Below, in pieces: positions 7,142 through 34,254 of a stretch of DNA of 64,000 nucleotides (the stretch's first letter is position 1; each line of letters starts with the position of its first letter). The notes under the pieces are model-generated. The model did not search any database. It saw only the letters and a program-made list of their open reading frames with translations, and was not told the origin of the DNA. Position numbers and translations under genes: made by a program. Source of the stretch: a virus; the IMG/VR virus record IMGVR_UViG_637000095_000001; one strand, written 5' to 3'.

Positions 7142-7356
7142 CAAACTGAGAATTTAGACACTTCGACAACAAGCTGGACGCAAGGCGGAGGCTGTTGTGG
7201 GTGTCGCCGAGCCAAACCTGACCGTGTGTTTATCAGCACGGCAGGTGGCAGAAAAGGCGAACCTGCGACACTCCGCTTGTTGGATCAGCTCCTTCCTCTG
7301 TTTCCGGCCCGTGCCGACACCCACGCGGTGCTCCTCCTCGCTCCGAGGAGGACCAA

Positions 7357-7941: not shown

Positions 7942-7945
7942 TCGA

Positions 7946-7976
7946 CCGACGCATCGCCCGGGGTTCCGGTAAGTAA
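7946..7976 (+). promoter_or_regulatory. Element-specific promoter motif, copy 2
   Basis: CCGACGC-N13-CCGGTAAGTAA, 4 nt after the sigma stop, heading the replication operon. Confidence 0.85.
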
Positions 7977-8049
7977 GCATCGTGCCGCATGAAGCGGACG
8001 ACCGGGGCCTCGGTAAACAGAAAACCTGCAAAACAACAGGAGATTAACA

Positions 8050-8370
8050 ATGGAAACTTACAAGTATCGCTTTGATCAGTCGGTCCCGGCTCAGGACTTG
8101 GAAGATACCTTCATGCTGGCGTTGCTGGCTGTGGAAAGCATGTATGGACACTCCAGAGTGAGGATGGAATCCCGCTTCAATCTGGATAAGCAAAACCGCA
8201 CCTGCTTTATCGACGCAGCGACCAAGGTCGGCTGTGATCTGGCGAGCATCTTTACCGGATTCGCCACCAAGGAGTATGGCGAACGAGCGGTAATGATCGA
8301 CCGTGAGCCCGCCAGTGGCGGATGCGCCTGCAATGCAAAGGCACCTTCAGCAATGGAGGTGGCGGTATGA
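8050..8370 (+). CDS. Hypothetical protein
   Basis: AGGAG RBS; ATGA overlap with the next gene. Confidence 0.75.
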   Translation: METYKYRFDQSVPAQDLEDTFMLALLAVESMYGHSRVRMESRFNLDKQNRTCFIDAATKVGCDLASIFTGFATKEYGERAVMIDREPASGGCACNAKAPSAMEVAV

Positions 8371-9383: not shown

Positions 9384-9408
9384 CCCAAACCATACAAGGA
9401 GATAAATC

Positions 9409-10179: not shown

Positions 10180-10658
10180 TGACAATGAGTTGGAATAACG
10201 ATGACACCATGGACCTCGCGCAGTTCGACGATGATTTCGTTTCTGCGGATGTTGAAGAAAAGGACTTTGAAGCTGTTCCCGACGGGAAATATCAGGTCAA
10301 GGTCGATCGTGTGGAACTGACCCGCTCGGAAACTTCCGGCAATCCCATGCTCAAGTGGGCGCTGAAGATTCTGGGTCCCACGCATAAAGGCCGTCTGCTC
10401 TGGCGTAACAACGTCATTGCCAGCAAGGACAATGTGAAATGGCTCAAGCAGGATCTTTATACCTGCGGCCTGCAGATGGACAAGCTCTCCGATCTCCCGG
10501 GCAAACTGGAAACCCTTCTGGATGTCGGACTCGAGGTGACTAAGCGCACGAAAAACGAATTCGAGAACATCTACTTCAACCGCCGGATTGTGCTTTCGGA
10601 TGAAGACGCCGCCGCACCGTCGACCGGTCACGATGTAGACGACATGATTCCGTTTTGA
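10179..10658 (+). CDS. DUF669 family / putative single-strand DNA-binding protein
   Basis: VPDGKYQVKV...SETSGNPMLKW.LKI; acidic C-tail ending DDMIPF. Confidence 0.8.
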   Translation: MTMSWNNDDTMDLAQFDDDFVSADVEEKDFEAVPDGKYQVKVDRVELTRSETSGNPMLKWALKILGPTHKGRLLWRNNVIASKDNVKWLKQDLYTCGLQMDKLSDLPGKLETLLDVGLEVTKRTKNEFENIYFNRRIVLSDEDAAAPSTGHDVDDMIPF

Positions 10659-10660
10659 GG

Positions 10661-11137
10661 ATGGGCATGGTTACCGTTGTCGTTGATACCCGGGAACAGG
10701 AGCCTTACGGATTTGATTCGGAATCAGTCGCATCAGTCCGCAAGGCCCTCCCGGCGGGAGATTACTCCATCGAGGGATTCGAGACCCGGGTGGCGGTGGA
10801 AAGAAAGTCCATGGCGGATTTTGTCTCCACTGTCATCAGAGGCCGAAAGCGTTTTCACAAGGAGCTGGAAAAGCTCCGGCATTATGACGCGGCCTGTGTC
10901 GTCGTTGAGGCCAATTACCGGGATATTCTCGGGGCCTGCTACCAGAGCGACGCTCATCCAAACGCCCTCATAGGAACCATTGCCTCCATCATCATCGACT
11001 TCGGTGTGCCCGTTTATTTCTGTTCAGACCGTCAGGCAGCCTGCCGGTTTGTTGAAGAGTTTTTAATGCGCTTTCACCGGAGGTTCGCTCAATGCCAAGA
11101 AAAACAAACTCCCCGGCAAAACTCCGGGGAAGAATAG
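10661..11137 (+). CDS. ERCC4/XPF-domain nuclease
   Basis: VVDTREQ...GDYS...VAVERKSMADFV. Confidence 0.88.
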   Translation: MGMVTVVVDTREQEPYGFDSESVASVRKALPAGDYSIEGFETRVAVERKSMADFVSTVIRGRKRFHKELEKLRHYDAACVVVEANYRDILGACYQSDAHPNALIGTIASIIIDFGVPVYFCSDRQAACRFVEEFLMRFHRRFAQCQEKQTPRQNSGEE

Positions 11138-13314: not shown

Positions 13315-16300
13315 GCATGGGCGGTTCAGACAATGTCAGAGAATACTACCGCCTGATAACCGAGCTCGATATCGGAGATGTGGCAAGGGATCTTCTGGCC
13401 GGAAGGATCACACAGGAATCCCGGCAGCGGCTTCAGTGCGATTGTCCGCACCACCAGAGTCAGTCCCGTCGCTCCCTTCATGTGATGCTCGACAAACAGG
13501 GCTGGTATTGCTTCGGCTGCGGTGTGGGCGGAGATGTCCTCCAGCTCGTCGAGTTTGTTCAATCGGGAACGGTTACGGCCGGTCAATCCGGTCCCATGCC
13601 CGACAGCCATCGGCAGGCCCGTGACTTCCTCGCTGGTAAAGCCGGGATGCCGCCACTGTCGCGTTATGGCCTCACGCAGGAACGATTGGAGCAGACGGAA
13701 AACGATCGATCGTTTGAGATCCGGGTCAAAGATGCCCTGACCGAACTGGCCCGCTACTATCACCAGCGGCTCAAGGAAAATCAGGAGGCGCTGACCTGGC
13801 TGAAGGAAAAGTACGCCATCAGTGATGAGACCATCGACGACCTGCTGATCGGTTTTGCCGACAATGAATCCGGTGTCATTGCAGCTCTGCGCTCCGGCGA
13901 ACATGGCTTCAGCAAACGGGAGCTTTCCGCCACAGGTGCCTTTCGCCCGACCAGTCAGGATGGATTGAATCCGTTTTTTGAGAAACGCATCATTTTCCCA
14001 TACTGGAGCCGTGGTCGTGTCGTGTTTATGATCGGCCGCAAAACACCGTGGACTCCGGACGTAAACTGGGAACAGGGAAAGTACAAGAAGCTGCCGGTTC
14101 ACGATGAACATCAGCGCCCTTATGTCGCCCGCTTCATCAACAATGCGGTGCTGTTCAATGAAGACTGCCTGCTGGGCAAGCCCGATCACATCATCATTAC
14201 CGAAGGTGTGACCGATTGTATTGCTCTGATGCAGCAGGGATTTCCCGCGCTCTCTCCTGTAACGGTAAGAATCAGGGCCGCAGACTGGGAACGTCTGGTT
14301 CCAAAGATGCGCGGACTCAAGACCGTCTATATCTGTCAGGACAATGAAATCTCGGAGGCCGGGCTCAAGGGAGCCTTGCAGACTGCTCGCACGCTGGCCG
14401 AACACAAGATTGATACGAAGCTGGTTACCATTCCTCTGAATGAGCCCCAGCAGCAGGCTCGGCAGGAACTTTCGCGACGGTTCAACCTGACGGCAGCTGT
14501 CGGTCCCCGGGAGTTGGCCAAATTACTCGAAGGCCATTCAGACGAGGATATCCGGGAGGCTGAAACGCTGCTGGCCAACGCCAAGATCGATGTGAACGAC
14601 TTCTTTGCATCCCGTAATGGCAAGGCCGAGTTTGAGGAGCTGCTTTCTTCGGCCTGTACGCCGGTTGAGTTCGGCATTCAAAGTCTGCCCGAGGATGCCC
14701 CGGAGGAAGAGAGAAACCGCCAGCTCGAGCCGGTTCTGGCTGAAATTTCGGCGCATTCACCGCTGGAGCAAAGCCGTCTGCTGAAACTGGTTCAGGAACG
14801 GCTGGGTAAAGCGGTTCCAATGGCGACCCTCAAGGAGCAGGTGCGCTCTGTTCAGCAGAACCGACGGGACAGCGCCAAGAAGGAAAAGAAGAAAGCCAAA
14901 CGTCTCAGCGGATCACCGCCCGGTTCCTGTCGCGCCCGGGTCGATGAGGTACTGATTGATACAGAGCTGGAAAACGGTGCTCCGGATTATACCGCTGCAG
15001 CTGAAGCGGCCTATGACTGGTTTACCGCCAACGGAGCCCAGTTCTTTCACACCCAGACCGGTGAGCCATTTATGTATTTCGATAACTCCATCTACTGGAT
15101 GGATTCACCCGACCGTGGGCGCAAGAGACAGTATGCGGCCATGCTCTATAAGCACACCGGCATGGTTCCGACATCCAACGGCGGTCGCACCTTTTTCGAG
15201 GTATTGCCGAGTCTGGCGATGATTCGTGGTCAGGTGCGAGACCATTTCTCGTGGCTGCATTCGGATATTTCCAATTTCACGGTCTATTTTAACTTGAATA
15301 ATCAGGACCATGAGATTGCCCGGATCACACCGGATGGCATCGAGATTCTGAAGAACGGTGGAAATGCCGATGGGATCATTCTCGACGGCTCCCGCAAAAT
15401 GAAGCCGCTGAAGTTTCTGAAGGAAGCCTCTCCGGAGGAAGCCGACAAACTGCTGGTCGATCTTCTGATCAACAATATGACCTGCTCGCAGGGAGACCGC
15501 TTTCTGATTCTGTCCTGGCTGACCTGTTTTCTGCTGATCGACTTTTCCGGAACCCGGCCCATGACCCGTTTTGAAGGTTCGGCCGGTTCGGGTAAGACCA
15601 CCGCCAGCAAGCTAATTTCGGCGCTGCTTTACGGTGAGCCCCAGCACAAGAAAGCCACCGATGCGGCCAACTATACCGATGGTTCCCAGAATCCGCTTAT
15701 CGTCCTCGACAACATCGAGGTCAAGCAGATGACCGAGGATCTGACCACCTTCATGCTGACCAGCATCACCGGCATTGCCAAAGAGAAACGCAAGAGCGGC
15801 ACCGACAGCGAAACCGTAACCGAGCGAACCAAATGTCTGCTGAATACCACCGGCATCGAACCGTTGTGCGGAGAGCTGTCCGAAATTCAGTCCCGTAGCT
15901 TTGTGATCAATTTTGATATCGGTAATCAGGGCAACGACTGCTTCATCGAGTCGGAGGTGATTGCAGCTCTTCAGCGCAACCGGGACCTGATCATTTCCGC
16001 TTTGATGAAACGGACCAGCGAGGTGCTGGCCATGATGAAAGACGGGATGCGGACACAGGCGATGAAGCTGCTGCACGAGGCCCTTGGCAACCATGACAAA
16101 CGGCGCTGCAACGAATACCTCAGCCTGATGTATCTGATGCTGCTGGCCGGGTCATCTCAGGATCAGATCGAACAGGGAATGTCGACTCTGGCTCCAGCCT
16201 TCAAGCAGCAGATCCAGACCATCAACCAGACCAGTCGTGAAACGGCACGGGATTCCAATCACACCGCAACGGCGCTCTCGACTTTGTTCAAGGCATGGCG

Positions 16301-16613
16301 AACAGCCGTGGAGGCCGATCGGAAAGACATGTACAACGATCGCCGAGTGGATCACATTCAGGAGTTCGTTGCCCGCTATCAGGTGCAGCTTGAAGAAGAC
16401 GGCTGCCTCAAGGAGGTATTGTCCCGGGAACTGTTCGTGGCGCTCAAGCGTGTGGCCAGAGATTTTGGTCTGCGCTTTGAAATGGATTCATCGAGGCAGT
16501 TTGCCCAGCGCTTTGCCAACGATCTTGAAACCATCCGCGAGGCCGGATTCGATGTGGTCATCAGCCAGAAACGCTACGGAACCAAGCTCTATACTATCCA
16601 GACAGTCGAATGA
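13311..16613 (+). CDS. DnaG-type primase (Zn finger + TOPRIM) fused to a C-terminal P-loop ATPase/helicase
   Basis: CPHH...WYCFGC zinc finger, IITEGVTDCIAL and ICQDNE TOPRIM, FEGSAGSGKTT Walker A; ATGA overlap at 13311. Confidence 0.88.
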   Translation: MSMGGSDNVREYYRLITELDIGDVARDLLAGRITQESRQRLQCDCPHHQSQSRRSLHVMLDKQGWYCFGCGVGGDVLQLVEFVQSGTVTAGQSGPMPDSHRQARDFLAGKAGMPPLSRYGLTQERLEQTENDRSFEIRVKDALTELARYYHQRLKENQEALTWLKEKYAISDETIDDLLIGFADNESGVIAALRSGEHGFSKRELSATGAFRPTSQDGLNPFFEKRIIFPYWSRGRVVFMIGRKTPWTPDVNWEQGKYKKLPVHDEHQRPYVARFINNAVLFNEDCLLGKPDHIIITEGVTDCIALMQQGFPALSPVTVRIRAADWERLVPKMRGLKTVYICQDNEISEAGLKGALQTARTLAEHKIDTKLVTIPLNEPQQQARQELSRRFNLTAAVGPRELAKLLEGHSDEDIREAETLLANAKIDVNDFFASRNGKAEFEELLSSACTPVEFGIQSLPEDAPEEERNRQLEPVLAEISAHSPLEQSRLLKLVQERLGKAVPMATLKEQVRSVQQNRRDSAKKEKKKAKRLSGSPPGSCRARVDEVLIDTELENGAPDYTAAAEAAYDWFTANGAQFFHTQTGEPFMYFDNSIYWMDSPDRGRKRQYAAMLYKHTGMVPTSNGGRTFFEVLPSLAMIRGQVRDHFSWLHSDISNFTVYFNLNNQDHEIARITPDGIEILKNGGNADGIILDGSRKMKPLKFLKEASPEEADKLLVDLLINNMTCSQGDRFLILSWLTCFLLIDFSGTRPMTRFEGSAGSGKTTASKLISALLYGEPQHKKATDAANYTDGSQNPLIVLDNIEVKQMTEDLTTFMLTSITGIAKEKRKSGTDSETVTERTKCLLNTTGIEPLCGELSEIQSRSFVINFDIGNQGNDCFIESEVIAALQRNRDLIISALMKRTSEVLAMMKDGMRTQAMKLLHEALGNHDKRRCNEYLSLMYLMLLAGSSQDQIEQGMSTLAPAFKQQIQTINQTSRETARDSNHTATALSTLFKAWRTAVEADRKDMYNDRRVDHIQEFVARYQVQLEEDGCLKEVLSRELFVALKRVARDFGLRFEMDSSRQFAQRFANDLETIREAGFDVVISQKRYGTKLYTIQTVE

Positions 16614-18125
16614 TTATTCGGGTCGGTTATAGCCGTCTTTCACTGCCTGTTCCATGGCCGACAATTCTTCATCGGTCAGGAAGTCAAAGTGAGCGGATCT
16701 CTTCCTTGCAGAAAGGCTGCCGTTGTTCTGCAGACACAACTGGATGAATAAGTCGATCAGGCGGTCAGGCATATCAATGATGTCCTGTATCGCCTTCTTG
16801 GTATTGTCGTAGTTGGCCAGAAAGCTGAGTTCTTCCACAAGCTCTTCTTCAATCGTTTTGGTAACAAACTCATACAAGGCTTCTGACTGAGCTGTCATAT
16901 CCATATACTGATACCAGCATGCGGTATCGTTCTCGACGGTCATTTGCCCCATTTCATCCAACCGATAATCGATGAGTTGCAACAAGGGTCGAGAGAACGC
17001 TTCCAGTGATGCATCATAGGCCGCCGGATTTTTGAGCATGACGGCCGAAACCGGAAACATGAGTCCGCGTGGCACCAGCTCCTGCAGCGACAGAATGTTA
17101 TGTATCAGAAACCGATGAATTCGTCCGTTCCCATCTTCAAACGGGTGCAGGAACACAAAGCCATAGGCAATGCTCGCCGCATGAATGACCGGAGATACAT
17201 TTCCCACTTTCATCCGCTTATGGGAGTCAATCAATCCCTCCATGAGGCTTTGCAGATCATCAGGTTTTGGACAAATGAAATGTATGATCTCCTTTTGATA
17301 GGCAACCGTCTGGCCGACATAATTCTGGCTCACCCGATAGTCACTGTCTTTGAAACGCGGATCGACGATTCGGTTCTGAAGCTCTATCAGCCTTTCCTTT
17401 TCACAGAAGTCTTCCTTTTCGGCAAGCTCCAGCGATGTGATGAATTTTTCAGTACGGGAAGCGTTGGGCTTTATGTGCTCAATTTCAAAAGATGACTTCG
17501 TTTCCTTGTTGTAGAGGTAGCTCAGTGCCCGGCGAAGCAGTTCCGGTGGATATGCGGTGACAATATCCTCACACCTTTTTCGCAGGTCGGCTGAATCCAG
17601 CTTGGCAAGCTTTTCGGTCCTTCTTACGACAGGGCAAAACGATTTGGGGCCAAGAAGGTTGTTTACAATGCGGTGACGTGAAGATTTTTCTCCGTTCTGA
17701 ACGGTGTAATAATCTTTGGCTTCCAATGCATCGACATAATTGCCGGAAGTCAGGTCATCGACAGGCAGTTGTTTGCCGGTCAGAAACTCATAGAAGAACC
17801 AGACTCTCCGAGCATACTTCCCCGTAGGTTTGGATTTGATGAACTCGGTTAGCTCATCCTGAGAAACCTTTTCGAAGATTCGAGCCAGTAAGCCCAGATT
17901 GACCCCGTCATATTTCAGCACGAATTCAAGATGGTCTCCGACCTTTTCCCCGGGCCAGTACCTTATAGGGTAGATGTCTTCTATTGTTCCATCCTGAACC
18001 TTCGATCTGTGAGTTCCTGATGAAGACACAAACGAGGTATGCCAATGGGGCATGCCTGTCAGCCCCATCATATCAAGCAGATACGCGTAGCCTGCCGGGC
18101 GAGATTCCAAAACGTTTATATCCAT
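16614..18125 (-). CDS. Fic-domain protein
   Basis: Complete HPFEDGNGRIHR motif; start moved to ATG 18125 behind GAGGAG. Confidence 0.9.
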   Translation of the reverse strand: MDINVLESRPAGYAYLLDMMGLTGMPHWHTSFVSSSGTHRSKVQDGTIEDIYPIRYWPGEKVGDHLEFVLKYDGVNLGLLARIFEKVSQDELTEFIKSKPTGKYARRVWFFYEFLTGKQLPVDDLTSGNYVDALEAKDYYTVQNGEKSSRHRIVNNLLGPKSFCPVVRRTEKLAKLDSADLRKRCEDIVTAYPPELLRRALSYLYNKETKSSFEIEHIKPNASRTEKFITSLELAEKEDFCEKERLIELQNRIVDPRFKDSDYRVSQNYVGQTVAYQKEIIHFICPKPDDLQSLMEGLIDSHKRMKVGNVSPVIHAASIAYGFVFLHPFEDGNGRIHRFLIHNILSLQELVPRGLMFPVSAVMLKNPAAYDASLEAFSRPLLQLIDYRLDEMGQMTVENDTACWYQYMDMTAQSEALYEFVTKTIEEELVEELSFLANYDNTKKAIQDIIDMPDRLIDLFIQLCLQNNGSLSARKRSAHFDFLTDEELSAMEQAVKDGYNRPE

Positions 18126-18136
18126 GCGGTCTCCTC

Positions 18137-18329
18137 GTAAAACTGTTATTCTGCTGGTAATATAGTTAAAAACAGGGCATTTGTCAATAAAACAATTAAA
18201 ATTCAACCATTGTCTGGTAAAACAATTACGAGTGAGCTGCCAACATTTAGAAATTGGCATCTGGCTGGCGAAACTATTATTCGGCTGGTAAAATGATTAG
18301 AAAACGGCATCTGGCTGGTAAAATCGTTA
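18137..18329. repeat. Seven degenerate 11-12-bp direct repeats upstream of the Fic gene
   Basis: GTAAAACTGTTA 18137, GTAATATAGTTA 18157, ATAAAACAATTA 18187, GTAAAACAATTA 18217, GCGAAACTATTA 18268, GTAAATGATTA 18288, GTAAAATCGTTA 18318. Confidence 0.6.
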
Positions 18330-18343
18330 CAAAGGCCGCCGGT

Positions 18344-18664
18344 GTAGAAAGACCTTTCTACAATGTAGAATGTCCAAAAAGCACCTTTCTACAGCGCAAG
18401 TCCTTGTTATTTATGGTGTTACGCGGCAGGCGTAGAAAGTGTAGAAAGGTTTCAGAGATTACTCCCCCTTACTGTTCATTTTTTCAAACCATAGGATGAA
18501 GGCATGCCTGAAAAAAAACGGGCTATGCGTAAGTAATATTTCTATACCTTTCTACACTTTCTACAAAAATATCTATAACTAACTGCTATTACTACTGTTA
18601 AGAGATGTAGAAAGGGGGTGTAGAAAGGTCTCTGGGCGTAGAAACCCCTTTCTACGCTTTCTAC
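18344..18664. repeat. GTAGAAAG iteron-like array, putative replication origin
   Basis: 11 exact copies: plus strand 18344, 18432, 18441, 18607, 18620; minus strand 18354, 18385, 18548, 18557, 18648, 18657; AT-rich stretch near 18565-18605. Confidence 0.7.
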
Positions 18665-18667
18665 CAT

Positions 18668-18698
18668 CCGACACTCAGGCTCCGGCTCCGGTAAGTAA
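18668..18698 (+). promoter_or_regulatory. Element-specific promoter motif, copy 3
   Basis: CCGACAC-N13-CCGGTAAGTAA. Confidence 0.85.
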
Positions 18699-18736
18699 CG
18701 GGAAGAAAAATAAACCCGAACTTCCGGAGGTCATCC

Positions 18737-19525
18737 ATGAGCCTTTTACAAACCATGCTCACGCATCTCGATTCCCCTGAGTGTGAGCCTTCTGAACAAG
18801 CTCCTCCGCCTGTTGAAAATGACAGCAGCGCACCGGAGCCCGATCTTTTTGTATCCACCGATCTGGATACCGCACAATTCGAGTGGGTCGTCACGTCTGC
18901 CAGCGACGTTGAATACAATGGCAAAATCTATCGACGTCTCGAGCCGGAGTATTTCGCATGGCTCCGTTCACGGATGCTGGCAGCCCAGTCCGCTTTCAAA
19001 GCCGGTAAGCTTTCTGAATCAACATGGGAAAGCCTGAAAAGCAGGTTCAACCCGCTTCAGGAATACGCGGTTCAGAAATTCGGCAAGGAAGATTTACAGC
19101 AGACATCCCGGCAGTTCAGCCCACAGAATTACCAAGCTCCCCGCCATGTTCCGGTAAAACCCGAGATACCTGCAGAACCTCCCAAGAACAACTGGATTTA
19201 TCCGCCAAACGAAGCTTGGAATTGTATAGAGCACGTCAGCTCCGACGCATTGGCCAAGGTTGATGCCATCAAGGAGGAAGCCATGTCCCGGAAATGGTCT
19301 GAAGCCAGGTTATACCAGAATCAGGGACGATACCGCTTCCCCTGCGGTCAGGACTATGGGCTGGTCTGCTTTGTCGGCGGTGACCGTAAGATCGGTGCCG
19401 TGACCGAAAGATATATCGAAATCATCCACAGTCCGGATACACCGCGTCCCAGCACGCTCAGGTTTCACAACCCGGATGTTCCGCAGCCGTGGTTGAAGAA
19501 AGTGGAGAGTAACCATGAGCATTAA
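18737..19525 (+). CDS. Hypothetical protein (262 aa)
   Basis: GGAGG RBS; overlaps the next gene. Confidence 0.8.
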   Translation: MSLLQTMLTHLDSPECEPSEQAPPPVENDSSAPEPDLFVSTDLDTAQFEWVVTSASDVEYNGKIYRRLEPEYFAWLRSRMLAAQSAFKAGKLSESTWESLKSRFNPLQEYAVQKFGKEDLQQTSRQFSPQNYQAPRHVPVKPEIPAEPPKNNWIYPPNEAWNCIEHVSSDALAKVDAIKEEAMSRKWSEARLYQNQGRYRFPCGQDYGLVCFVGGDRKIGAVTERYIEIIHSPDTPRPSTLRFHNPDVPQPWLKKVESNHEH

Positions 19526-19790
19526 GAAATACGCCAATGCCGAACACATCCTCCCGAGAGAGCTGCTCAAGGAGGTACAGAAGCATCATTCCGGCATTCT
19601 TTGGATTCCAGCGCCGGGCAGTTTTTACAAGGAGCGCAGGCAGCTGGTTATCGCCCTCAAAAGTCAGGGAATCGAAACCGATGAAATTGCCAGCCTCGCC
19701 GGTATCACACGTCGCCGGGTCAATCAGATCCTCGCGGACCACCGAAAAGAGGCTGACGCCCGACAGGTTGAGGACTCTTCCGGTATGTAA
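19515..19790 (+). CDS. CD3324/Mor-like HTH transcriptional regulator
   Basis: KYANAEHILPRELLKEVQKH.SGILWIP N-terminus; C-terminal HTH TDEIASLAGITRRRVNQIL. Confidence 0.65.
   Translation: MSIKKYANAEHILPRELLKEVQKHHSGILWIPAPGSFYKERRQLVIALKSQGIETDEIASLAGITRRRVNQILADHRKEADARQVEDSSGM
19760..19790 (+). promoter_or_regulatory. Element-specific promoter motif, copy 4 (variant)
   Basis: CCGACAG-N13-CCGGTATGTAA; the final TAA is the stop of the 91-aa gene; upstream of putative terS. Confidence 0.7.
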
Positions 19791-19878
19791 GGCTTGAGGT
19801 TCGGGAAAACGGGCTAAATCTGCCTTCCGCCCCGAACCCCGAAATTTGGAAACAAAATTGATAAACCGGAGATGAGCC

Positions 19879-20412
19879 TTGGGCGTTACAAAAAAAGACG
19901 AACAGAATCTGGATCGCTGGCATCGGAATGAGGGCCGGACAGACCATGATCAGGCAAAGAGCAAAGCGGGAGCTAAAGAAGGAAACCTTCGCACGCTCAA
20001 GCATGGCATCTTTGCCGACCGCTGCCTGACACCGGAAGAAAAGGTCATGTTCGACAGCATCATCGAAAAGCTGCATGAGGATTTTCAGTTCAACAAATCC
20101 AGTGACTTCCTGCAGGTCGAGCTTGTGGGCATCTACTCGGTAAAGCTGGTCCGGGCACAAATCGAAGGAAACACACAGGCGGCCGAGAGTCTCGACCGGA
20201 TGATCCGCTGCCACATGAAGGATCTCAAGACCACCAAGATTGCCCGCGAGGGTGAGGAGCCGAAAGGTCCGCAGACGTCTCCTGCCGAATGGGCCTCCGC
20301 TCTTCTTGAAAAAGTGAGTGAAGCCGCCGCCCAGAAGACCGCTTCCGTGAAAAAGCCGAAAAAAAGTTCAGATAACACCAGAGCCTCGAGAAGAAATAGC
20401 GCGAAGGATTAG
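19879..20412 (+). CDS. Putative terminase small subunit
   Basis: GNLRTLKHGIFA resembles the GNxNAxKHG motif of TerS N-termini; helical, basic C-tail; start uncertain (TTG). Confidence 0.55.
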   Translation: MGVTKKDEQNLDRWHRNEGRTDHDQAKSKAGAKEGNLRTLKHGIFADRCLTPEEKVMFDSIIEKLHEDFQFNKSSDFLQVELVGIYSVKLVRAQIEGNTQAAESLDRMIRCHMKDLKTTKIAREGEEPKGPQTSPAEWASALLEKVSEAAAQKTASVKKPKKSSDNTRASRRNSAKD

Positions 20413-26306: not shown

Positions 26307-29300
26307 TGCCGTCGGACCTGAAGCAGCGCATCCAGACGGCCACCCTGAAAAGTCTGACGGCCCGCAACCGCTACAACGACCAGGTCACGGCCCAGCTCAC
26401 CCAGGCGCTGAAACAGGCCGAAGACGAGGTCGCCCGCGCCATCCTCCAGTACCGCTCCCTCGGCTCCCTGCCGGACAACAAGCTCGCCGCCCTCAAGGGG
26501 CTGGAAAAGCTCCAGCTCGAACTCGACGACACCATGAAGCGGCTCAAGCGGGAGCAGACCCTGCTCTTTCGCAAGACGACCAAGGACTCCTTCAAGCTCG
26601 GCATCCAACAGGGAATCGGAGAGCTCGCCGACGCGGCGCTGCCGTTCTACGCCGACCTCAAACCCGAAGGCATCGACAAGCTGGCCACCAAGGTGTTCAC
26701 CATCGTCGACACCAATGCCCTCGACTTCATGGCGCAGTACAACCTCACACTCGCCGGTGACGTTCACCGAGAACTCGCAGACGGCATCAAGCGCACCATC
26801 CTGAACGGCGTCGCCACGGGCAAGGGAGCCGACGACATCGTCCGGGACATGGGCAAGGTGATCATCGACAAGGACTCCTTTCGCCAGGCCGGAAGCCGGG
26901 TGTTCAGCAAGGCGCAGTACCGCATGGAGATGATCGCCCGCACCGAGGTCCTCCGCGCCCACAACATGGGCAGGCTCAAGTTCCACGAGCGGGTCGGCAT
27001 CCAGAAACTGGAATGGCTGGCCATGGAGGACGAGCGCATGTGCCCGGTCTGCGGCGGCCAGGACGGCAAGACCTTTCCCATCGACAAGTTCCCGCAGCAA
27101 CCCGCGCATCCGCACTGCCGCTGCACCAATATCGTGGCTTGGCCGATGACCGTCTGCGGCAGCGAGATGGCCGCCAAGGCCGCCACCCAGGCATCGCAGG
27201 GGGACGCCTGCATTCTCCCGCCCCACGTGCTGGAAGGCATGGCCGACGCCCAGGCCAAGGAGAACGCCAAGCTCAAGAGCGCCTTTGAAAACGGCGACAT
27301 CGCCGACCTCGGCTCGCTGACGGTCAAACAGCTCCAGACCCTGGCGAAACAGAACGGCGTGGCCATCGCCCGGACCAAGGCCGATTTCATCAAGCTGCTC
27401 GATCTGGCCGAACCCGGCATCGATCACGGCGACCTGGCCGGAGCGGCACTCAGCGCCAAGCTCAAGGAACACAAGATCGGCCTGCTGCGGACCAAGGAAG
27501 AACTGGTCGATCTGCTCGGGCTGAAGCAGACGGAACTCAAACAGGCCAAGCTGCTCGCCGCCCAGATGGCAAAGATCCCTCCAGCCGAGGGGCTGGAGGG
27601 CATGACCGCCCAGCAGCTCAAGGAGATGGCGAAGGAAAACGGCATCTCCCTCAATATGACCAAACAGGAGACCATCGAGCTGCTCGACAAGCTGGAACCC
27701 GGAGTGGATCACAGCGGCCTGATGGGCAAGGAACTCGCGGCGGCCAAACAGAAGCACGGCATCGGCATCCTCAAGAACAAACAGCAGCTCGTCGAGGCGC
27801 TACAGAAGAAGGCCGGTGCCGATATGGCCGAGTCGGTCAAGAAAAAGGCGGTCGACGAGGCCAAGCAGAAGTTGATCCTGAAACAGAAAACGGCACTCGA
27901 AGACGCCGCCAAGGCCGTGGTCGTTCCCGACACGCCGACCGGCTACAAGGATTTCCTCGACGCGATTGCCAAGGCGGAACAGGCGGTTTCCGGCGGCACC
28001 GATCTGCCCCAGGAACTGCTTGCGGCCCACAGCAAGGAAATCGCCCTCAAGAAACAGCTCTTCCAGGATCAGGTCGGCAAACTGAAATCGGCAGAGCTCA
28101 AGACGCTCGCCAAGGAGACCAAGGTCCAGTATTGGCAGTGGGCCAACAAAGACGAGCTGACCACGCTCTTCACCGAGACCGACCCCGCGAAAATCAAGGC
28201 GGTTCAGGTCAGCATCGACACCAAGCACGCCGCATGGGCCGAAAAACATGGCGGCAAGAAGAAAACCGCTCCTGCCAAGCCCGCCACACCGAAGAAAGAG
28301 CCACCGAAACCGGCTCCACAACCGAGCCCGGTCAAGCCGCCCGAGCCCAAGATCGGCAAGAAAGGTGCGGAGTTCGCCACAGTCGATTCAGCGTGGCAGC
28401 AGAAAGGTCTGCCGTCAAAATTCAAGAAATCCGGCAAGGCCGCTGTCGGCGGCGCACATGAAAAGGAGTTCTGGACCGACGAAAACGGCGACAAATGGCT
28501 GTTTAAGCCCATTGGCCGCAAGGACGATGAGTTCATCGCCTTCGGAGAGGAAGCCGCCTACAAGATTGGCCGCCTGATCGACCCCCATTCCATCGAGGTG
28601 CGCACCATCCAATTGAACGGCCGCACCGGCTCCATCCAGAAATGGCGCACCGATCTGCGGGACGACTTCGATTTTCGCAACATACTGCCCCAGGATCTGA
28701 CCACCATCGAACTGGAGCAGATCCAGCGCGAGCATGTGGTCGACTGGCTGATCGCCAACCACGACGGACATTCCAAGCAGTTCATCCGCGCCCGGGACGG
28801 TCGCGTCTACGGCATCGACAAAGGCCAGGCATTCAAGTTTCTGGGCCAGGACAAGCTCTCGCTCGACTATCACCCCAACGGCGTCTGCGGCGAGGAAGAG
28901 CCGTTTTACAACAAGGTCTTCCGGGCGGCCAAGGAAGGGAAGGTACGGGTCGATCCGAACGCGACCCTTCGCTACATCCAGGAAGTCGAAAAGATCGCCG
29001 ACGAGGATTATCTCGATCTGCTGCGCCCCTACGCCGAGGGCCGGTTCGCCAAGGACCCAGCCGGGCTGAGGCATTTCTACGATCTGGCCCTGGAACGAAA
29101 GCACAATCTTCGACGGGACTTCGAGGCTTATTACGCCGATGTGCTGGGGGATCGGGGGTTCCGTTTCGACAAGCTGACGGCCGCCACCGGCAAGAAAAAG
29201 CTGCTCTCCTCCGCCGAGGAAGCCCTGGTTGAGGAAGCCCGCAAACTCGGCTGGCAAGGCAAAACATTGCCCTTCGACAGCGGCGACGTGGAAGATCAGA

Positions 29301-30895
29301 ACGCGCTGATCTTCACCGAGACCTTCAAGGGGAAGAAGCGCACCGTGGTCAAGATGAAGATCCGGCCGGACACGGACCGCCGCATCGACGAAGTGCTGCG
29401 CAGGTATGTGCAGACGGCGGTCGGGGAAAAGGGACAACCGCTGGTCGAAGACAGCTTCTTTCCGACGATTCTGGACGCCGTCAAGAACGTCAATTTCCAC
29501 GTGGGCGACGGCAAGTACAACCGGACCAAGATCGACAAGGCCCTGCGCCTGCGCAAGAAACTGGAAGCCCTGCAAAAGAGCGCCGACCCCAAGGTCAAGG
29601 AGATGGCGGACCACTATCTGAAATGGGTCAAGGAGATCGAAGAGTCCGTCGACTGGGACCGGGCCACCAACGGCGTATTCGATCAGTACTTGCCCAAGCT
29701 CGACGCGCAGAAACCCAAGGAGAAACCGCCGTTCAAGGTGGAACGTGGCAAGGTGACCCATACCAAGCGCAGGATCGGGTCCGGCACCATTACCGTCGAG
29801 GCCGACGACATCGACAACCGGACGCTGTTCAATCACAACTCCCGCATGCAGGACGGGCACCAGTACACCGTCACCTTCGAGGACGGCACCCGGGTCCGCT
29901 ATCGCCCCTGGTCCGACACCAACCTCTATGCCCAGCGCGGCGAGCTGGAAATGATCCTGGACGGCGACGCCACCCCTGGACGGGTCGAGGCGATGCTGGA
30001 AAAGCTCGAACAGCTTGGGATCGATACCCGGGTGGCCACGGCGGAAAACGCCGAGCAGATGTATCTCGAAAAGCTCGCCTACATCCGCAAGACCGACAAG
30101 AGCGCCGACTACAAACGACTGCAGAAATCCCTCGACGACCGCAATGCCACCACCACCGAGCGGGTCCAGGCTCTGCGCGGCTATTGGCAAAAGGAACTGG
30201 GCGTTCAGGACATCACCCAGCTTTCCGGATACAACCCGCTGGGCGAATACCAGGCGGGTTTTCTGGACCGCGACGCCAAGGGCGGATACCGGCACCAGTT
30301 CCGGTTCGACATCACCGATGAGGAGCTGGAAAAACAGATGAAGGGCTATTCGCTGGTCCACGATCTGACCAACGGCGAGAGCATGTCCGGCTTCATCGAC
30401 TTGATCATGGAGAACAACGGAGCCATGGTCAGCACGGTCGAGAAGATGCGCATGGGCGTGGCTCCGGGCGGAATGTCCCCGGTGGCCGACATGCAGACCG
30501 GCGGCGCGAGCTATTTCTTCACCCGAATCAAGAAGCAACCGGCCAGCGACGCCTCACCGGCCCTCTACTTCAAGAAACAGATGCTGCGGCGCATGGACGC
30601 CATCAGCTATGACCATGACGCCTACGGCAAGGTGATTGACGACTACGTGCAGCGCAACCGGGGAGCCAGCATCGATGATTGGAAGCGGTTCTCGCAGCGC
30701 CATGGCAACGAGACCATCTTCAAATACTCGGTGACGCTACTGGACAACATCGAGTTCATCGTGGCCAGAAGCGACAACGAACGCCGGGAGATCGTCCAGA
30801 GTTTCACCCGGCGCGGCATCAAGAAACTGCCCGACGGGCGCAAGGTGGAGGACATCGTCCATACCCCGCAAAGCTGGAGCAAACGCAAACAATGA
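26306..30895 (+). CDS. MuF/SPP1-gp7 head morphogenesis protein with helical repeats, HipA/PI3K-like kinase and putative ART domain
   Basis: MuF core IARTEVLRAHN..G...W...DERMCPVC...HPHCRC; kinase WLFKP...DWLIANHDGHSKQF...IDKGQAF; C-terminal LVH...YFFTR...NETIFK. Confidence 0.85.
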   Translation: MPSDLKQRIQTATLKSLTARNRYNDQVTAQLTQALKQAEDEVARAILQYRSLGSLPDNKLAALKGLEKLQLELDDTMKRLKREQTLLFRKTTKDSFKLGIQQGIGELADAALPFYADLKPEGIDKLATKVFTIVDTNALDFMAQYNLTLAGDVHRELADGIKRTILNGVATGKGADDIVRDMGKVIIDKDSFRQAGSRVFSKAQYRMEMIARTEVLRAHNMGRLKFHERVGIQKLEWLAMEDERMCPVCGGQDGKTFPIDKFPQQPAHPHCRCTNIVAWPMTVCGSEMAAKAATQASQGDACILPPHVLEGMADAQAKENAKLKSAFENGDIADLGSLTVKQLQTLAKQNGVAIARTKADFIKLLDLAEPGIDHGDLAGAALSAKLKEHKIGLLRTKEELVDLLGLKQTELKQAKLLAAQMAKIPPAEGLEGMTAQQLKEMAKENGISLNMTKQETIELLDKLEPGVDHSGLMGKELAAAKQKHGIGILKNKQQLVEALQKKAGADMAESVKKKAVDEAKQKLILKQKTALEDAAKAVVVPDTPTGYKDFLDAIAKAEQAVSGGTDLPQELLAAHSKEIALKKQLFQDQVGKLKSAELKTLAKETKVQYWQWANKDELTTLFTETDPAKIKAVQVSIDTKHAAWAEKHGGKKKTAPAKPATPKKEPPKPAPQPSPVKPPEPKIGKKGAEFATVDSAWQQKGLPSKFKKSGKAAVGGAHEKEFWTDENGDKWLFKPIGRKDDEFIAFGEEAAYKIGRLIDPHSIEVRTIQLNGRTGSIQKWRTDLRDDFDFRNILPQDLTTIELEQIQREHVVDWLIANHDGHSKQFIRARDGRVYGIDKGQAFKFLGQDKLSLDYHPNGVCGEEEPFYNKVFRAAKEGKVRVDPNATLRYIQEVEKIADEDYLDLLRPYAEGRFAKDPAGLRHFYDLALERKHNLRRDFEAYYADVLGDRGFRFDKLTAATGKKKLLSSAEEALVEEARKLGWQGKTLPFDSGDVEDQNALIFTETFKGKKRTVVKMKIRPDTDRRIDEVLRRYVQTAVGEKGQPLVEDSFFPTILDAVKNVNFHVGDGKYNRTKIDKALRLRKKLEALQKSADPKVKEMADHYLKWVKEIEESVDWDRATNGVFDQYLPKLDAQKPKEKPPFKVERGKVTHTKRRIGSGTITVEADDIDNRTLFNHNSRMQDGHQYTVTFEDGTRVRYRPWSDTNLYAQRGELEMILDGDATPGRVEAMLEKLEQLGIDTRVATAENAEQMYLEKLAYIRKTDKSADYKRLQKSLDDRNATTTERVQALRGYWQKELGVQDITQLSGYNPLGEYQAGFLDRDAKGGYRHQFRFDITDEELEKQMKGYSLVHDLTNGESMSGFIDLIMENNGAMVSTVEKMRMGVAPGGMSPVADMQTGGASYFFTRIKKQPASDASPALYFKKQMLRRMDAISYDHDAYGKVIDDYVQRNRGASIDDWKRFSQRHGNETIFKYSVTLLDNIEFIVARSDNERREIVQSFTRRGIKKLPDGRKVEDIVHTPQSWSKRKQ

Positions 30896-31404
30896 CCATG
30901 AAGGACTTTATCGAGCAGGAAAAACGGCGGCTGCAAGAATCGCTGCACTGGTTCAACAGCCGGGGCAGCCGCATGACGGTCAGAGAATCCGGGGATCTCT
31001 TTCTGGATACCCTGGTGGACAGCTTCACCGTCACCCGGATCGCACCCCATTTCGACGCTGCTGGCAACCATCTGCGCACCGATTTCTGGCTGTTGTGGAA
31101 GGCGCTCGGTTACGACGAGGGCTTTCAGCACGCCCACACCATCAAAGTGGTCGATGTCCGGGTCGAAGACACCCTGATGGCCGAACATGACGGCAAGGAG
31201 GCCGAAGGCTGGCTGATTGTCGAGCTGACCGACGATCTGGGCCGGATTCACCATGTCGAAATGATGGAGCCGGTCTCGGAGCCCGAGCTCGCGGCGGACT
31301 GGCAACGCTGGATCGCCTACCGACAAAAAAACGCCGAAAGATTCCACCGGATCGACGCCCAGCTTCTGGAAGAGCATCTCCAGATCGCGGAGGACTGGTC
31401 ATGA
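30892..31404 (+). CDS. Hypothetical protein (candidate immunity/partner of MuF)
   Basis: ATGA overlap with the MuF stop; 170 aa. Confidence 0.7.
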   Translation: MTMKDFIEQEKRRLQESLHWFNSRGSRMTVRESGDLFLDTLVDSFTVTRIAPHFDAAGNHLRTDFWLLWKALGYDEGFQHAHTIKVVDVRVEDTLMAEHDGKEAEGWLIVELTDDLGRIHHVEMMEPVSEPELAADWQRWIAYRQKNAERFHRIDAQLLEEHLQIAEDWS

Positions 31405-31754
31405 AACTGCGCTATATGATCGACTCGATAATGGCCGACCGGCAAGCCACCGTCCCGGAATACGTGCCCGTGGGCGTCTGGGTTCAGGGGCCGGGTCCCG
31501 GTCTGGATGTGGAGATGTACTACCTCGACCGGGGGCCGAACGGGCTTGCCGACCGCAAGGACGAGGCCGCCTGGGTGGTCAACCGTCTGGTCGAGGCCGA
31601 GGCCACCTCGCTTCCGGCGAATTTTCTCGAATATCACCGGCTGTCCCGCTCCCCCTATGACGGGGTCTTTTCCGAGATCACCGAGAGCGACGAATACCCC
31701 TCCCTCGACGCCTGCGGCAAGGCCGTTCTGGCCCGGCTGAACCCCACCCGCTGA
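31401..31754 (+). CDS. Hypothetical protein (117 aa)
   Basis: ATGA overlap; GGAGG upstream. Confidence 0.7.
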   Translation: MKLRYMIDSIMADRQATVPEYVPVGVWVQGPGPGLDVEMYYLDRGPNGLADRKDEAAWVVNRLVEAEATSLPANFLEYHRLSRSPYDGVFSEITESDEYPSLDACGKAVLARLNPTR

Positions 31755-31770: not shown

Positions 31771-31801
31771 CCGACACATCAACGACGCTTCCGGTAAGTA
31801 A
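31771..31801 (+). promoter_or_regulatory. Element-specific promoter motif, copy 6
   Basis: CCGACAC-N13-CCGGTAAGTAA heading the protease-capsid operon. Confidence 0.85.
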
Positions 31802-31854
31802 CCGCTGAACGCTCCCCGCAGGTCGCGGAGAGCACAGCAAACTGACCGGAGACG

Positions 31855-34254
31855 TTGATGGAACTGTTCGCCACAGACCTGGAAAGGCTGGCGTTTCTAC
31901 TGGAGGCCGATGCGGCGCTGACTCTCGATCCCGATGCGCTCGGGACCGAGGCCGCCGAACAGTCCGCTCCTGAAGAGCTCCCTCCCGAGAAGCGCCCCAA
32001 GTACATCACCAACTACATCGGCAGTAAGCAGAAGCTCGTCGACTGGATCTGGAAGCATACCCCGGAAGGCGTTGGCACCGTGCTCGACGCCTTTTCGGGG
32101 TCTGCGGTCGTGGCCTACATGTACAAGACCAAGGGCCTCCAGGTCATCGCCAACGACCGGCTCCGCTACTGCCACCACGCCGCCAAGGCGATCATCGAGA
32201 ACAACTCGGTTCGCCTGAGCGAGGACGAGATCGAGGCGCTCCTGGCCGACAACGCCAAGGCGGGCAGCTTCGTTCAGGACAACTTCAAGGGCATTTTCTT
32301 CGCCAAGGGCGTCCATGCGCTGATCGACACCATCCGCGCCAACTGCGACAAGCTCTCCGGCTTCAAGAAAGACATCGCCCTGTTCGGCCTCGGCAAGACC
32401 TGCATGAGCGGCAAGGGCGGCTTCGGCCACTTCTCGTCGTCCACCGACTATGGCCGCCGCCAGGACACCCCAGACGAATTCAAGGATCGTCTGCGCAAGA
32501 ACCTGCAGCGCATCAACGCCCTGGTCTTCGACAACGACAAGGAGAACAAGGCCCACCGGCAGGACATCAACGACCTGCTGCCGAAAGCCAAGGCGGATCT
32601 GGCCTACTTCGATCCGCCCTACGCCACCGAGTTTTCGACTACCAACTACGAGCGGGCCTACCACTTCGTGGAAGGGCTCATGACCTATTGGGAAGGGCTC
32701 GAAATCAAGGCCGACACCAAGGTCAAGTATTACGAGACCGACCACAAGACCGTCACCAAGGCCAACGCCAGCGAGTTCTTCCAGACCTTTCTCGGCAATG
32801 CCAAGCACATTCCGCACTGGCTGATTTCCTACCGCGATCACGCCTATCCCAACGAGCAGGAGATGAAGCGGATCATCGGCTCCTTCGGCAAACAGAGCCG
32901 GATGAAGTCCAAGGATCACCACTACGCCATCACCTCCAAGCACGGCGAGGCTTCCAACGCCAAAGAACGTCTGTTCGTCTGCGCTCCCGGGGCCAAGGCC
33001 AGCGCCGAACGGGAGGAGAAACCCGTTCCGATGGCCGCCGCCGCGAACTTCCACACCAGCATCCCCGTGGACATCCGGCTGGGCGATGGTGAACGCCTCG
33101 CGACCGAGGCCATGGATGTCGGTTCGGCGGGCGACCCCCAGTTCAGCTTCGTGCTCTGCCGAACCGGGACCAACAAGAACGGCGACCACTTCACCGCCGA
33201 GGAGTTGTCCGGTCGGCACATGACGGCCGTGAACAAGAAGGTCGATCTGCAGCATTCGCAGGAGTTCAACGACATCGTGGGTGGCATCGTCGCCGCCGAC
33301 TACCTGGAGGACGACAACGGCGGCCGCGTGGAATGCGTCGGCGAGCTGTATGTCCACGACACCCCGGCCGCCCGGCTGGCCTACAAGCTGATGAAGCGCG
33401 GGATCATCTCCCAGGTCTCCATGGAGTGCGACTACCAGGAAGGCGAATGCTCGGTCTGCCACAAGCGCTTCCAGAACAAGGCCGACTACTGCACCCACCT
33501 GCGCAAATTCAAGGGCCGTGATGTGGGCGGCCAACCCGTTTTCGAGATTCTGCACGGCGTCACTTTCACCGGACTGGGACTGCTCGACCGCAAAGGCGCG
33601 GACGAGAACGCCAGGATTCTGCAGGTGGCGTCCCTTCAGAGCCAGCCCGACCAATCCCAACCCGAAGGAGATTCCACGATGGAAGACAAAACCAAACCTA
33701 CAGATGAACCGGCCGTCGAAGCGGCCAAGAAGAAACCGGCCCAGCAGGAAGGCGATCCTGCCCGCGTTACCGACCTGGAAAAGGAAAACCGGCAGCTCAA
33801 GGCCCAGGTGGCCGAGCTGCAGAAACGAGTCCAGGAACTGGAAGCCGAACAAAAGGCGGCCGCCTGCCGCTCCCGGGCCAAGAAGCTGCTCACCCGTCTG
33901 GAGAAGCAGGGGCTCTCCTTCGCTTCCGAGGAGGACCGGGAAGCCGAGCTGAAACGCCTGGCCGAACTGTCCGACGAAGCCTTCGCCGCCACCGAGGCCG
34001 CTTACGAACGCCTGCCCAAATCGGCCAAGGCGGACAAGGACAAGGAAGAGAAACCCGCCGACAGCGACCAGGGCGGCAAGCCCGCCGCCAAGGCATCGAC
34101 GGAAACCCCGCTACGCAGCGACGCCGGTGTCCGGCCCCACGATGTGGACGACCGCAAGGTGTCGCTCGAGGACCGTCTGCGCGACGGGTTCATGGCCGCT
34201 TACCGCAACCGTGTCGGCGAGGACTTTCCCGAACACTCGCAAATCAACGCATAA
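31855..34254 (+). CDS. DNA adenine methyltransferase (D12/Dam class) fused to prohead protease and scaffold
   Basis: NYIGSKQKL, VLDAFSGSAVV, YFDPPY (N-half); KKVDLQH...IVGGI...QVSMEC...CSVC...YCTH...FTGLGLL...AD.NARI (protease); coiled-coil acidic tail; single uninterrupted frame. Confidence 0.85.
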   Translation: MMELFATDLERLAFLLEADAALTLDPDALGTEAAEQSAPEELPPEKRPKYITNYIGSKQKLVDWIWKHTPEGVGTVLDAFSGSAVVAYMYKTKGLQVIANDRLRYCHHAAKAIIENNSVRLSEDEIEALLADNAKAGSFVQDNFKGIFFAKGVHALIDTIRANCDKLSGFKKDIALFGLGKTCMSGKGGFGHFSSSTDYGRRQDTPDEFKDRLRKNLQRINALVFDNDKENKAHRQDINDLLPKAKADLAYFDPPYATEFSTTNYERAYHFVEGLMTYWEGLEIKADTKVKYYETDHKTVTKANASEFFQTFLGNAKHIPHWLISYRDHAYPNEQEMKRIIGSFGKQSRMKSKDHHYAITSKHGEASNAKERLFVCAPGAKASAEREEKPVPMAAAANFHTSIPVDIRLGDGERLATEAMDVGSAGDPQFSFVLCRTGTNKNGDHFTAEELSGRHMTAVNKKVDLQHSQEFNDIVGGIVAADYLEDDNGGRVECVGELYVHDTPAARLAYKLMKRGIISQVSMECDYQEGECSVCHKRFQNKADYCTHLRKFKGRDVGGQPVFEILHGVTFTGLGLLDRKGADENARILQVASLQSQPDQSQPEGDSTMEDKTKPTDEPAVEAAKKKPAQQEGDPARVTDLEKENRQLKAQVAELQKRVQELEAEQKAAACRSRAKKLLTRLEKQGLSFASEEDREAELKRLAELSDEAFAATEAAYERLPKSAKADKDKEEKPADSDQGGKPAAKASTETPLRSDAGVRPHDVDDRKVSLEDRLRDGFMAAYRNRVGEDFPEHSQINA

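Follow-up and report, generated by a model that had tools for sequence, protein, structure and literature searches.

Why would a phage join a DNA methyltransferase to the protease and scaffold that shape its head? The question is raised by a gene in IMG/VR virus record IMGVR_UViG_637000095_000001, of which a stretch of 64,000 nucleotides (nt), called here the window, was analysed. Within a single open reading frame (ORF; positions in Table 1), this gene encodes a DNA adenine methyltransferase, a prohead protease and a scaffold part. We find that the fusion is real, being neither an assembly artefact nor a decaying gene, and that it probably gives rise to two proteins, the full-length product and a scaffold-only form of 191 amino acids (aa) predicted to start at a conserved internal site. 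With moderate confidence, we interpret the locus as a nested head-maturation gene with two products, the methyltransferase of which would be co-assembled with the head for the protection of particle-bound DNA.

Domain architecture of the fusion protein

An earlier note on this stretch had described a single in-frame 799-aa fusion carrying Dam/D12 motifs, a prohead-protease-like domain with a Cys/His cluster and a coiled-coil scaffold, placed in the protease slot ahead of the capsid gene and under a late-type motif, and each of these elements was recovered in our analysis. The reading frame is open, and its product matches phrog_27806 (798 aa) over the full length, with a score of 1762 bits. 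Homologues of the fusion protein in the databases are also 798 aa long. ATG 31858, which gives a protein of this length, is the likelier start of the gene because the Shine–Dalgarno (SD) sequence GGAG is spaced 6 nt from it, compared with 3 nt for TTG 31855.

The methyltransferase domain is recognized by Pfam PF02086 over aa 54–294 (90.6 bits against a cut-off of 22, E = 1.7e-25). An AlphaFold2 (AF2) model of the full-length protein folds this domain from approximately aa 57 to aa 380, with predicted local distance difference test (pLDDT) scores mostly of 80–97, and Foldseek searches with the model retrieved Escherichia coli Dam, T4 Dam and DpnM (probability 1.0, E-values of 1e-4 to 1e-6, template modelling scores by target of 0.5–0.57). 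Sequence searches of the PDB with the methyltransferase half, the protease half and a profile gave no significant match. Both the S-adenosylmethionine (SAM)-binding motif DAFSGS and the catalytic motif DPPY are invariant in alignment A1, which comprises 11 sequences at 38–100% identity, namely the window protein and 10 cluster representatives at 38–68%. The NCBIfam Dam profile TIGR00571 scores 25.7 bits, below its threshold of 114.85; as judged by these profiles, the enzyme is a divergent member of the D12 class and not a canonical Dam. A Pfam scan of the fusion protein found no helicase or other further domain, and consequently no module of LPD36, methyltransferase and superfamily 2 (SF2) helicase. 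Ahead of the methyltransferase there is a short N-terminal helix, followed by a disordered region of low confidence (aa 19–57).

The second domain is, on the evidence of its modelled structure, a prohead protease of the assemblin/T4 gp21 fold, for which the fold match is clear and the sequence profiles remain below threshold. In the full-length AF2 model, aa 426–592 have pLDDT scores mostly of 72–92, and in a model of aa 395–799 built from a 27-sequence alignment the protease core exceeds 95. VIA comparison of the protease model placed T4 gp21 (5jbl) first, with a Z of 11.4 and a root-mean-square deviation of 2.8 over 129 aligned residues. Herpesvirus proteases were also matched, those of varicella-zoster virus, human cytomegalovirus and Kaposi's sarcoma-associated herpesvirus with Z of 10.8, 8.3 and 7.8, respectively, and the first unrelated chain had a Z of 6.9. 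Foldseek returned only weak E-values for the same model, the clear match having come from VIA. The Cys/His cluster corresponds to a zinc-finger-like insertion in this domain (Table 1). A homologous region is present in an isolated phage, in gp19 of Phage G, which is located between the portal and capsid genes.

The remainder of the protein is the scaffold part. It is separated from the protease by a disordered linker of low confidence (aa 593–634), and the AF2 model contains a 50-residue helix (aa 635–684), two shorter helices (aa 692–718), a disordered low-confidence stretch (aa 723–770) and a C-terminal helix (aa 771–787) presumed to be a capsid-binding tail. The scaffold part also has weak matches to coiled-coil Pfam families.

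Two motifs in the linker that joins the methyltransferase to the protease are conserved across loci, HTSIPV (aa 400–405) and L-x-[AT]-E-A (aa 415–419). The latter sits 10–15 residues ahead of the protease core and is a candidate self-cleavage site. A related (G/A)-T-E-A sequence near the N-terminus (aa 31–34) was rejected as a conserved cleavage site, the stretch not being conserved in A1, and a third copy, FAATEAA, lies inside a conserved scaffold helix.

Recurrence, selection and variants of the fusion

Recurrence in independent genomes, which the earlier note had put forward as a check, was found in a genome scan that covered one genome per species and in which the best 80 of 201 relatives were inspected. 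All 70 loci spanning the gene carry both DPPY and the protease Ser motif in one open frame. These loci have 48–100% identity to the window protein and come from records labelled with many phyla. The remaining 10 of the 80 are fragments ended by a contig edge, none of which shows a split gene. More than 120 protein clusters at 97–99% identity are all 798–803 aa in length, and a search of 1.8 billion representatives returned full-length fused relatives at 38–68% identity, including the 10 cluster representatives aligned in A1. Megablast against isolated phages, in a set from which close records may be missing, gave no match, and tblastn against them found separate methyltransferase or protease relatives only.

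The gene is under purifying selection. When the window is compared with six near-identical copies, the codon positions that differ in the methyltransferase part comprise 50 synonymous and 8 non-synonymous ones, and the whole gene has the same bias. Contigs from RNA-seq libraries (four runs from four different studies) span the whole gene with no indels, and one RNA-library contig connects aa 265, within the methyltransferase, to the gene that follows. The one-frame recurrence, the synonymous bias and the indel-free RNA-library contigs establish that the fusion is real. The probability that the fusion is a product of misassembly, or a pseudogene in which two genes have joined and decayed, is negligible, since the same architecture is found in closed chromosomes and in many independent assemblies; nothing was found in its favour.

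The relatives differ in what precedes the protease. Some lineages have two tandem methyltransferase modules in this place, resulting in a protein of approximately 1291 aa. Other relatives consist of the protease-scaffold alone (approximately 390–410 aa), and still others have one or two copies of a domain of approximately 90 aa at the N-terminus of the protease-scaffold. In one relative (P0140) the 90-aa domain, at residues 1–90, stands in front of the methyltransferase. A separate methyltransferase gene beside a protease-scaffold gene was not found among the relatives; those without a fused methyltransferase simply lack the enzyme, and the gene order of one such relative is MuF, small ORF, protease-scaffold, small ORF, capsid. 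Because relatives carry nothing, the 90-aa domain, or one or two methyltransferases at the same place, the N-terminus of the protease-scaffold looks like a slot for added cargo domains.

Two further observations concern these variants. The 90-aa domain (W-E-E-T-x-x-E-I-R-x-R-x-x-D-P-x-x-F ... G-K-L ...) occurs in P0171, P0168, P0198, P0145 and P0218 and has no Pfam match. The tandem-methyltransferase lineage (loci L066–L088, many copies of which are exactly 1291 aa) is found in records labelled Syntrophus buswellii (a closed chromosome), Desulfobacterium, Zixibacteria, Anaerolinea, Ozemobacter and Phycisphaerae.

A conserved internal start for a predicted scaffold-only product

The gene contains an internal ribosome-binding site and an in-frame ATG at the junction of protease and scaffold, with Met609 located within the disordered linker between the two. 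At this junction, AGGAG or GGAGG stands 8 nt ahead of an in-frame ATG, GTG or TTG in 58 of 59 distinct sequences, against a background of 1.2% of start-like codons with such an SD elsewhere in the fusion-family genes. Met609 is replaced by Val or Leu in some relatives, in which the codon is then GTG or TTG. The SD itself is built on the rare Gly codon GGA, which accounts for 3 of the 53 Gly codons of the gene. To judge from this conservation and codon use, the signal at 33666–33681 is a ribosome-binding site under constraint at the nucleotide level, from which the 191-aa scaffold-only product is predicted.

The earlier note had placed a possible internal start elsewhere, at ATG 33031, from which a protease-scaffold without the methyltransferase would be made. 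The motif GGAGGAG (33013–33019) and the ATG (M393) do exist, and M393 lies roughly where stand-alone protease-scaffold homologues begin. However, the spacer is long (11–13 nt), and a 93%-identical copy has CTG in place of the ATG. Relatives of 64–93% identity have CTG, CTT, TTG or TTA there, the ATG is absent in more distant ones, and the SD-like GAG GAG codons are not conserved either. This start was consequently rejected as a conserved feature, and translation from it is very improbable; the conserved internal start is ATG 33679, which would yield scaffold only.

Comparison with known systems

Nested protease and scaffold genes have precedents in lambda C/Nu3, Mu I/Z, herpes simplex virus (HSV) UL26/UL26.5 and HFTV1 gp17/17.5. 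All share with the window gene a protease-then-scaffold frame, an internal start for the scaffold, a common C-terminus, a location just upstream of the major capsid gene, and the assemblin/gp21 fold. In lambda, HSV-1 and HFTV1, the abundant scaffold is the shorter of the two products, and the longer one, the protease, enters via the shared C-terminus (bioRxiv 10.64898/2026.09.13.751334). The N-terminal protease parts of P2 gpO and of HSV-1 stay in the mature capsids (bioRxiv 10.64898/2026.09.13.751334). The window gene differs from these nested genes in that a DNA adenine methyltransferase of approximately 330 aa (two in some lineages) precedes the protease, in that the protease has the CxxC..CxH insertion, and in that the two products are predicted from sequence.

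A second comparison is with the polyvalent proteins of phages. According to the text of Iyer, Burroughs, Anand, de Souza and Aravind (2017, PMC5512222), some polyvalent proteins carry a C-terminal assemblin-like peptidase, by which they are probably processed in assembly, and N6-adenine methylases are among the hub domains of these proteins. The polyvalent proteins described there (PMC5512222) and the fusion reported here both place an effector or enzyme domain before an assemblin-like peptidase, and both belong to phage head modules. In contrast, the peptidase of the fusion protein is not at the very C-terminus but is followed by a scaffold part of approximately 190 aa, and the typical methylase of polyvalent proteins is the DarB-type LPD36-methyltransferase-helicase module instead of a Dam-fold D12 enzyme. 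P1 DarB is described in the same text as a methyltransferase-containing protein of the virion head that shields the entering DNA in cis against type I restriction (PMC5512222). DarB is a giant methyltransferase-SF2 helicase whose loading is assisted by other Dar proteins and which has no protease or scaffold fusion, whereas the enzyme of the window has no helicase and belongs to another methyltransferase class, and its presence in the virion is a prediction. No virion proteome of this phage was found in the literature searched.

In phage T4, internal proteins such as IPI* and Alt have a capsid targeting sequence that is cut by gp21, and they are ejected along with the DNA; IPI acts against restriction. 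Non-structural proteins are in this case brought into the prohead core and released by the prohead protease, a route that is proposed here from sequence. The T4 proteins are directed to the scaffold core by a short N-terminal peptide with which they bind it, whereas the cargo of the window gene is covalently part of the protease-scaffold. Orphan phage Dam enzymes, such as T4 Dam and P1 Dmt, resemble the methyltransferase domain in fold and catalytic motifs and, like it, are presumed to protect phage DNA. Unlike the domain studied here, which is tethered to head-assembly parts and scores far below the TIGR00571 threshold, they are free cytoplasmic enzymes.

No description of a protein combining a D12 methyltransferase, an assemblin and a scaffold, or of a nested scaffold start in such a protein, was found in the literature, including the main text of PMC5512222 (its figures and FTP tables apart). 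The earlier note had supposed that capsid-delivered anti-restriction as such was undescribed, which is too broad, as P1 DarB and the polyvalent proteins are in print and capsid-borne anti-restriction is already known in principle; only the combination of a Dam-fold D12 methyltransferase with a nested protease/scaffold gene appears undescribed. If the methyltransferase is loaded via the protease-scaffold, virions would be armed with anti-restriction enzymes by a third route, beside the T4 targeting peptides and the MuF- and Dar-type carriers. The N-terminus of nested protease-scaffold genes would then be a natural cargo slot that could be used for loading chosen proteins into phage capsids, and the methyltransferase would be a testable host-range factor for a phage lineage found in very different bacteria. 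If the fusion does no more than couple expression, it is an oddity in the way genes are organised.

Restriction-site avoidance

Palindrome counts over the whole window show that seven six-letter sites are completely absent: GCCGGC (expected 59), GGCGCC (35), CCGCGG (35), GGATCC (23), GCGCGC (23), CGCGCG (17) and GGGCCC (12). CGATCG (7 observed, 30 expected) and CTAG (2 observed, 26 expected) are strongly reduced. This avoidance of palindromes and of CTAG reads as the signature of strong and varied restriction pressure. GATC (447 observed, 483 expected) and TGATCA (34 observed, 32 expected) are not avoided, nor are CTGCAG and CCCGGG. Adenine methylation of GATC blocks MboI-type enzymes, which cut at GATC, and BclI (TGATCA), but not BamHI or PvuI. 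The site counts are compatible with GATC methylation and suggestive of it at most.

A restriction enzyme stands beside a D12 methyltransferase in the genome nearest to the window among those compared, where an AlwI-family restriction endonuclease adjoins a double D12 methyltransferase of 633 aa (locus L004, G001:C1:1594163-1598188). This double enzyme has 35% identity to the phage methyltransferase domain.

Proposed mechanism and alternative explanations

The mechanism we propose is modelled on lambda C/Nu3, Mu I/Z, HSV UL26/UL26.5 and HFTV1 gp17/17.5. Most of the scaffold would consist of the 191-aa form, and the long form would be a minor species that joins the prohead core via the shared C-terminal scaffold part. 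Its entry would bring the protease and the attached Dam-fold methyltransferase, with intact catalytic motifs, inside the shell. The protease would then cleave the scaffold and itself, possibly at the linker motif L-x-[AT]-E-A, and the methyltransferase would remain in the head and exit with the DNA, or methylate the DNA at packaging. We infer the two products and their ratio, prohead incorporation, cleavage, retention and ejection from the analogous systems. The earlier note had likewise suggested co-assembly of the methyltransferase, and this suggestion stands insofar as the fusion carries a scaffold part able to join proheads. By analogy, the methyltransferase very probably enters proheads, and its retention in the mature capsid is plausible because N-terminal protease fragments stay in the mature capsids of P2 and HSV-1. 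Particle-borne DNA protection is the most likely purpose of the fusion. A role that depends on linkage is favoured because the catalytic motifs are invariant, because the methyltransferase is doubled in some lineages, and because the fusion is kept without exception in the inspected loci. It is a more tentative proposal, and on balance a doubtful one, that the methyltransferase is a true virion cargo, present in numbers from a few to several tens per head as set by the ratio of long to short product, surviving maturation and methylating DNA on entry or at packaging, and that together with extreme site avoidance it helps explain how a single phage lineage, at 95–98% nucleotide identity, occurs in closed genomes of two phyla and in a draft genome bearing the label of a third.

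Several points weigh against this interpretation. Sequence profiles for the protease stay below threshold, PF04586 (S78) at 17.4 bits against 21 (E = 0.005) and the HK97 proheadase TIGR01543 at 18.9 bits against 59 (E = 0.0013), and the placement of His467 and Ser522 as candidate catalytic residues is based on conservation, the S78 alignment and the fold. The linker motif L-x-[AT]-E-A is shared by relatives lacking a methyltransferase and is consequently not a specific site for methyltransferase release. GATC is possibly the target of the enzyme, a proposal drawn from site statistics and general knowledge of enzyme sensitivities. The RNA-library contigs may reflect carry-over of DNA. The protease could destroy the methyltransferase as well as the scaffold, and a free late methyltransferase would protect progeny DNA too, so that the fusion could serve expression timing alone.

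This last point leads to the main alternative, which we consider unlikely. The enzyme would act in the cytoplasm late in infection, methylating replicated DNA before assembly, and the fusion would only tie its amount and timing to those of the scarce, late protease product and then lock it into proheads for degradation, with nothing functional delivered to the next host. Methylation before packaging is the established route by which orphan phage methyltransferases protect DNA, the promoter motif GGTAAGTAACC is common to the fusion gene and the structural gene blocks, the attached scaffold must be degraded by the protease anyway, and homologous head modules function without a methyltransferase. 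However, split forms are absent from the loci that span the gene (0 of 70, among the 80 inspected), at identities as low as 48% and in records labelled with many phyla, and a second methyltransferase has been gained within the same polypeptide. The linkage would thus appear to be useful, because otherwise separate genes would be expected to arise and to be tolerated.

The observation that related head modules function without a methyltransferase bears in the opposite direction on a further explanation, in which the enzyme marks packaging or terminal-repeat sites and is coupled to head assembly in order to match the supply of proheads. A precedent exists in P1, where Dam methylation licenses pac cleavage; in addition, the fusion gene is located in the head and packaging module, and direct terminal repeats are present in a related viral contig. 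No cluster of methylation sites was seen near any genome end, although no search aimed at one was made. The tandem methyltransferases fit a collection of enzymes selected for DNA protection better than a single regulatory mark, and control of packaging is accordingly an improbable purpose.

Gene neighbourhood and features of the window

The features on which the preceding sections rest are collected in Table 1, together with the neighbouring genes of the head module. The promoter-like motif GGTAAGTAACC occurs eight times in the window at no more than one mismatch (five copies exact), all on the + strand, where 0.12 copies are expected by chance. Six of the copies were placed, and each is intergenic and ahead of a gene block. 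The motif is probably a promoter element for a phage-encoded transcription factor or sigma factor. Two small ORFs lie between the MuF gene and the fusion gene, and an ORF of 120 aa lies between the fusion gene and the major capsid gene. This position, between the portal and MuF genes on one side and the major capsid gene on the other, is as expected for a prohead protease. The phage is temperate and has a contractile tail, and its genome is about 90 kb, a size judged from a related viral contig.

Table 1. Features of the fusion gene and its surroundings in the 64,000-nt window
Feature	Position	Strand	Basis or remark
Methyltransferase-protease-scaffold ORF	31855..34254	+	open; 799 aa from TTG 31855, 798 aa from ATG 31858
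Start region	31848..31860	+	SD GGAG 31848-51; TTG 31855 3 nt after SD, ATG 31858 6 nt after
Promoter-like motif GGTAAGTAACC	31793..31803	+	~50 nt upstream of fusion gene
GGTAAGTAACC copies in window	3532, 7968, 18690, 24715, 31793, 37188, 45704, 52679	+	motif count
N-terminal helix, aa 8-17 (LERLAFLLE)	31876..31905	+	L16 at least 90% conserved in A1; AF2 pLDDT ~66
D12-class (Dam-fold) N6-adenine DNA methyltransferase domain, aa 54-380	32014..32994	+	Pfam PF02086, AF2, Foldseek
SAM-binding motif DAFSGS, aa 78-83	32086..32103	+	D78, F80, G82 invariant in alignment A1
Catalytic motif DPPY, aa 253-256	32611..32622	+	invariant in alignment A1; in every locus covering that part of the gene
Disordered linker, aa 381-425	32995..33129	+	pLDDT 23-31; holds HTSIPV, L-x-[AT]-E-A and M393 (ATG 33031)
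Prohead (capsid maturation) serine protease domain, aa 426-592	33130..33630	+	AF2, VIA fold match, conserved H/S
Catalytic candidates His467, Ser522	33253-55, 33418-20	+	invariant in 27 sequences; within S78-aligned stretch
CxxC..CxH zinc-finger-like insertion (C532, C535, C546, H548)	33448..33498	+	invariant in alignments A1 and A2; weak zf-C2H2 matches in homologues
Internal ribosome-binding site AGGAG (33666-70), 8-nt spacer, in-frame ATG 33679-81 (M609)	33666..33681	+	conserved in family
Nested scaffold-only ORF, 191 aa (predicted product)	33679..34254	+	internal start conservation; coiled coil aa 635-684, helix aa 771-787
Large terminase (TerL)	23160-24683		gene order of head module
Portal	24759-26306		gene order of head module
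MuF-type polyvalent minor head protein, 1529 aa	26306..30895	+	PF04233 E=1.9e-14; phrog_6577, phrog_115
Major capsid protein, 287 aa	34648..35511	+	phrog_2522 E=3e-98; scaffold's presumed partner

The region from the MuF core to the fusion gene (window 27130–31740), compared with L006:4772-9771 and L005, is a variable slot, occupied here by the long polyvalent tail of the MuF protein and the two small ORFs. In the Thiovibrio copy, a MuF protein of 287 aa is followed by a helicase-like gene of 1597 aa on the opposite strand (AAA_11/AAA_12, MTES_1575) and a helix-turn-helix gene. The Kiritimatiella copy begins at the fusion gene and has host genes upstream, which indicates a truncated prophage.

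Distribution across hosts

The head and tail module of the window (22396–44329) has 95–98% nucleotide identity to prophages in records labelled as different phyla (loci L005, L006, L009–L024, L043 and L047). Near-identical modules are found in the closed chromosomes of Desulfosarcina alkanivorans PL12 (Desulfobacterota) and Kiritimatiella glycovorans (Kiritimatiellota). Further near-identical copies are found in records labelled Ectothiorhodospira shaposhnikovii DSM 243 (Gammaproteobacteria), Desulfofustis, Desulfobulbus (two copies), Desulfocarbo and Thiovibrio, as well as in metagenome-assembled genomes of Verrucomicrobiota, Geobacteraceae and Desulfuromonadales. A near-identical temperate phage distributed across phyla would be highly unusual if real, and no description of such a cross-phylum prophage was found in the literature.

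The composition of the window changes at approximately 20 kb, where the G+C content steps from 0.49–0.55 (positions 1–20000) to 0.60–0.65 (positions 20001–64000). The window may represent one phage genome made up of two halves that differ in composition. When 31-letter words of the window were sampled, 41% were common to the nearest of the genomes compared and 26% to a viral contig of 90,363 bp with terminal repeats.

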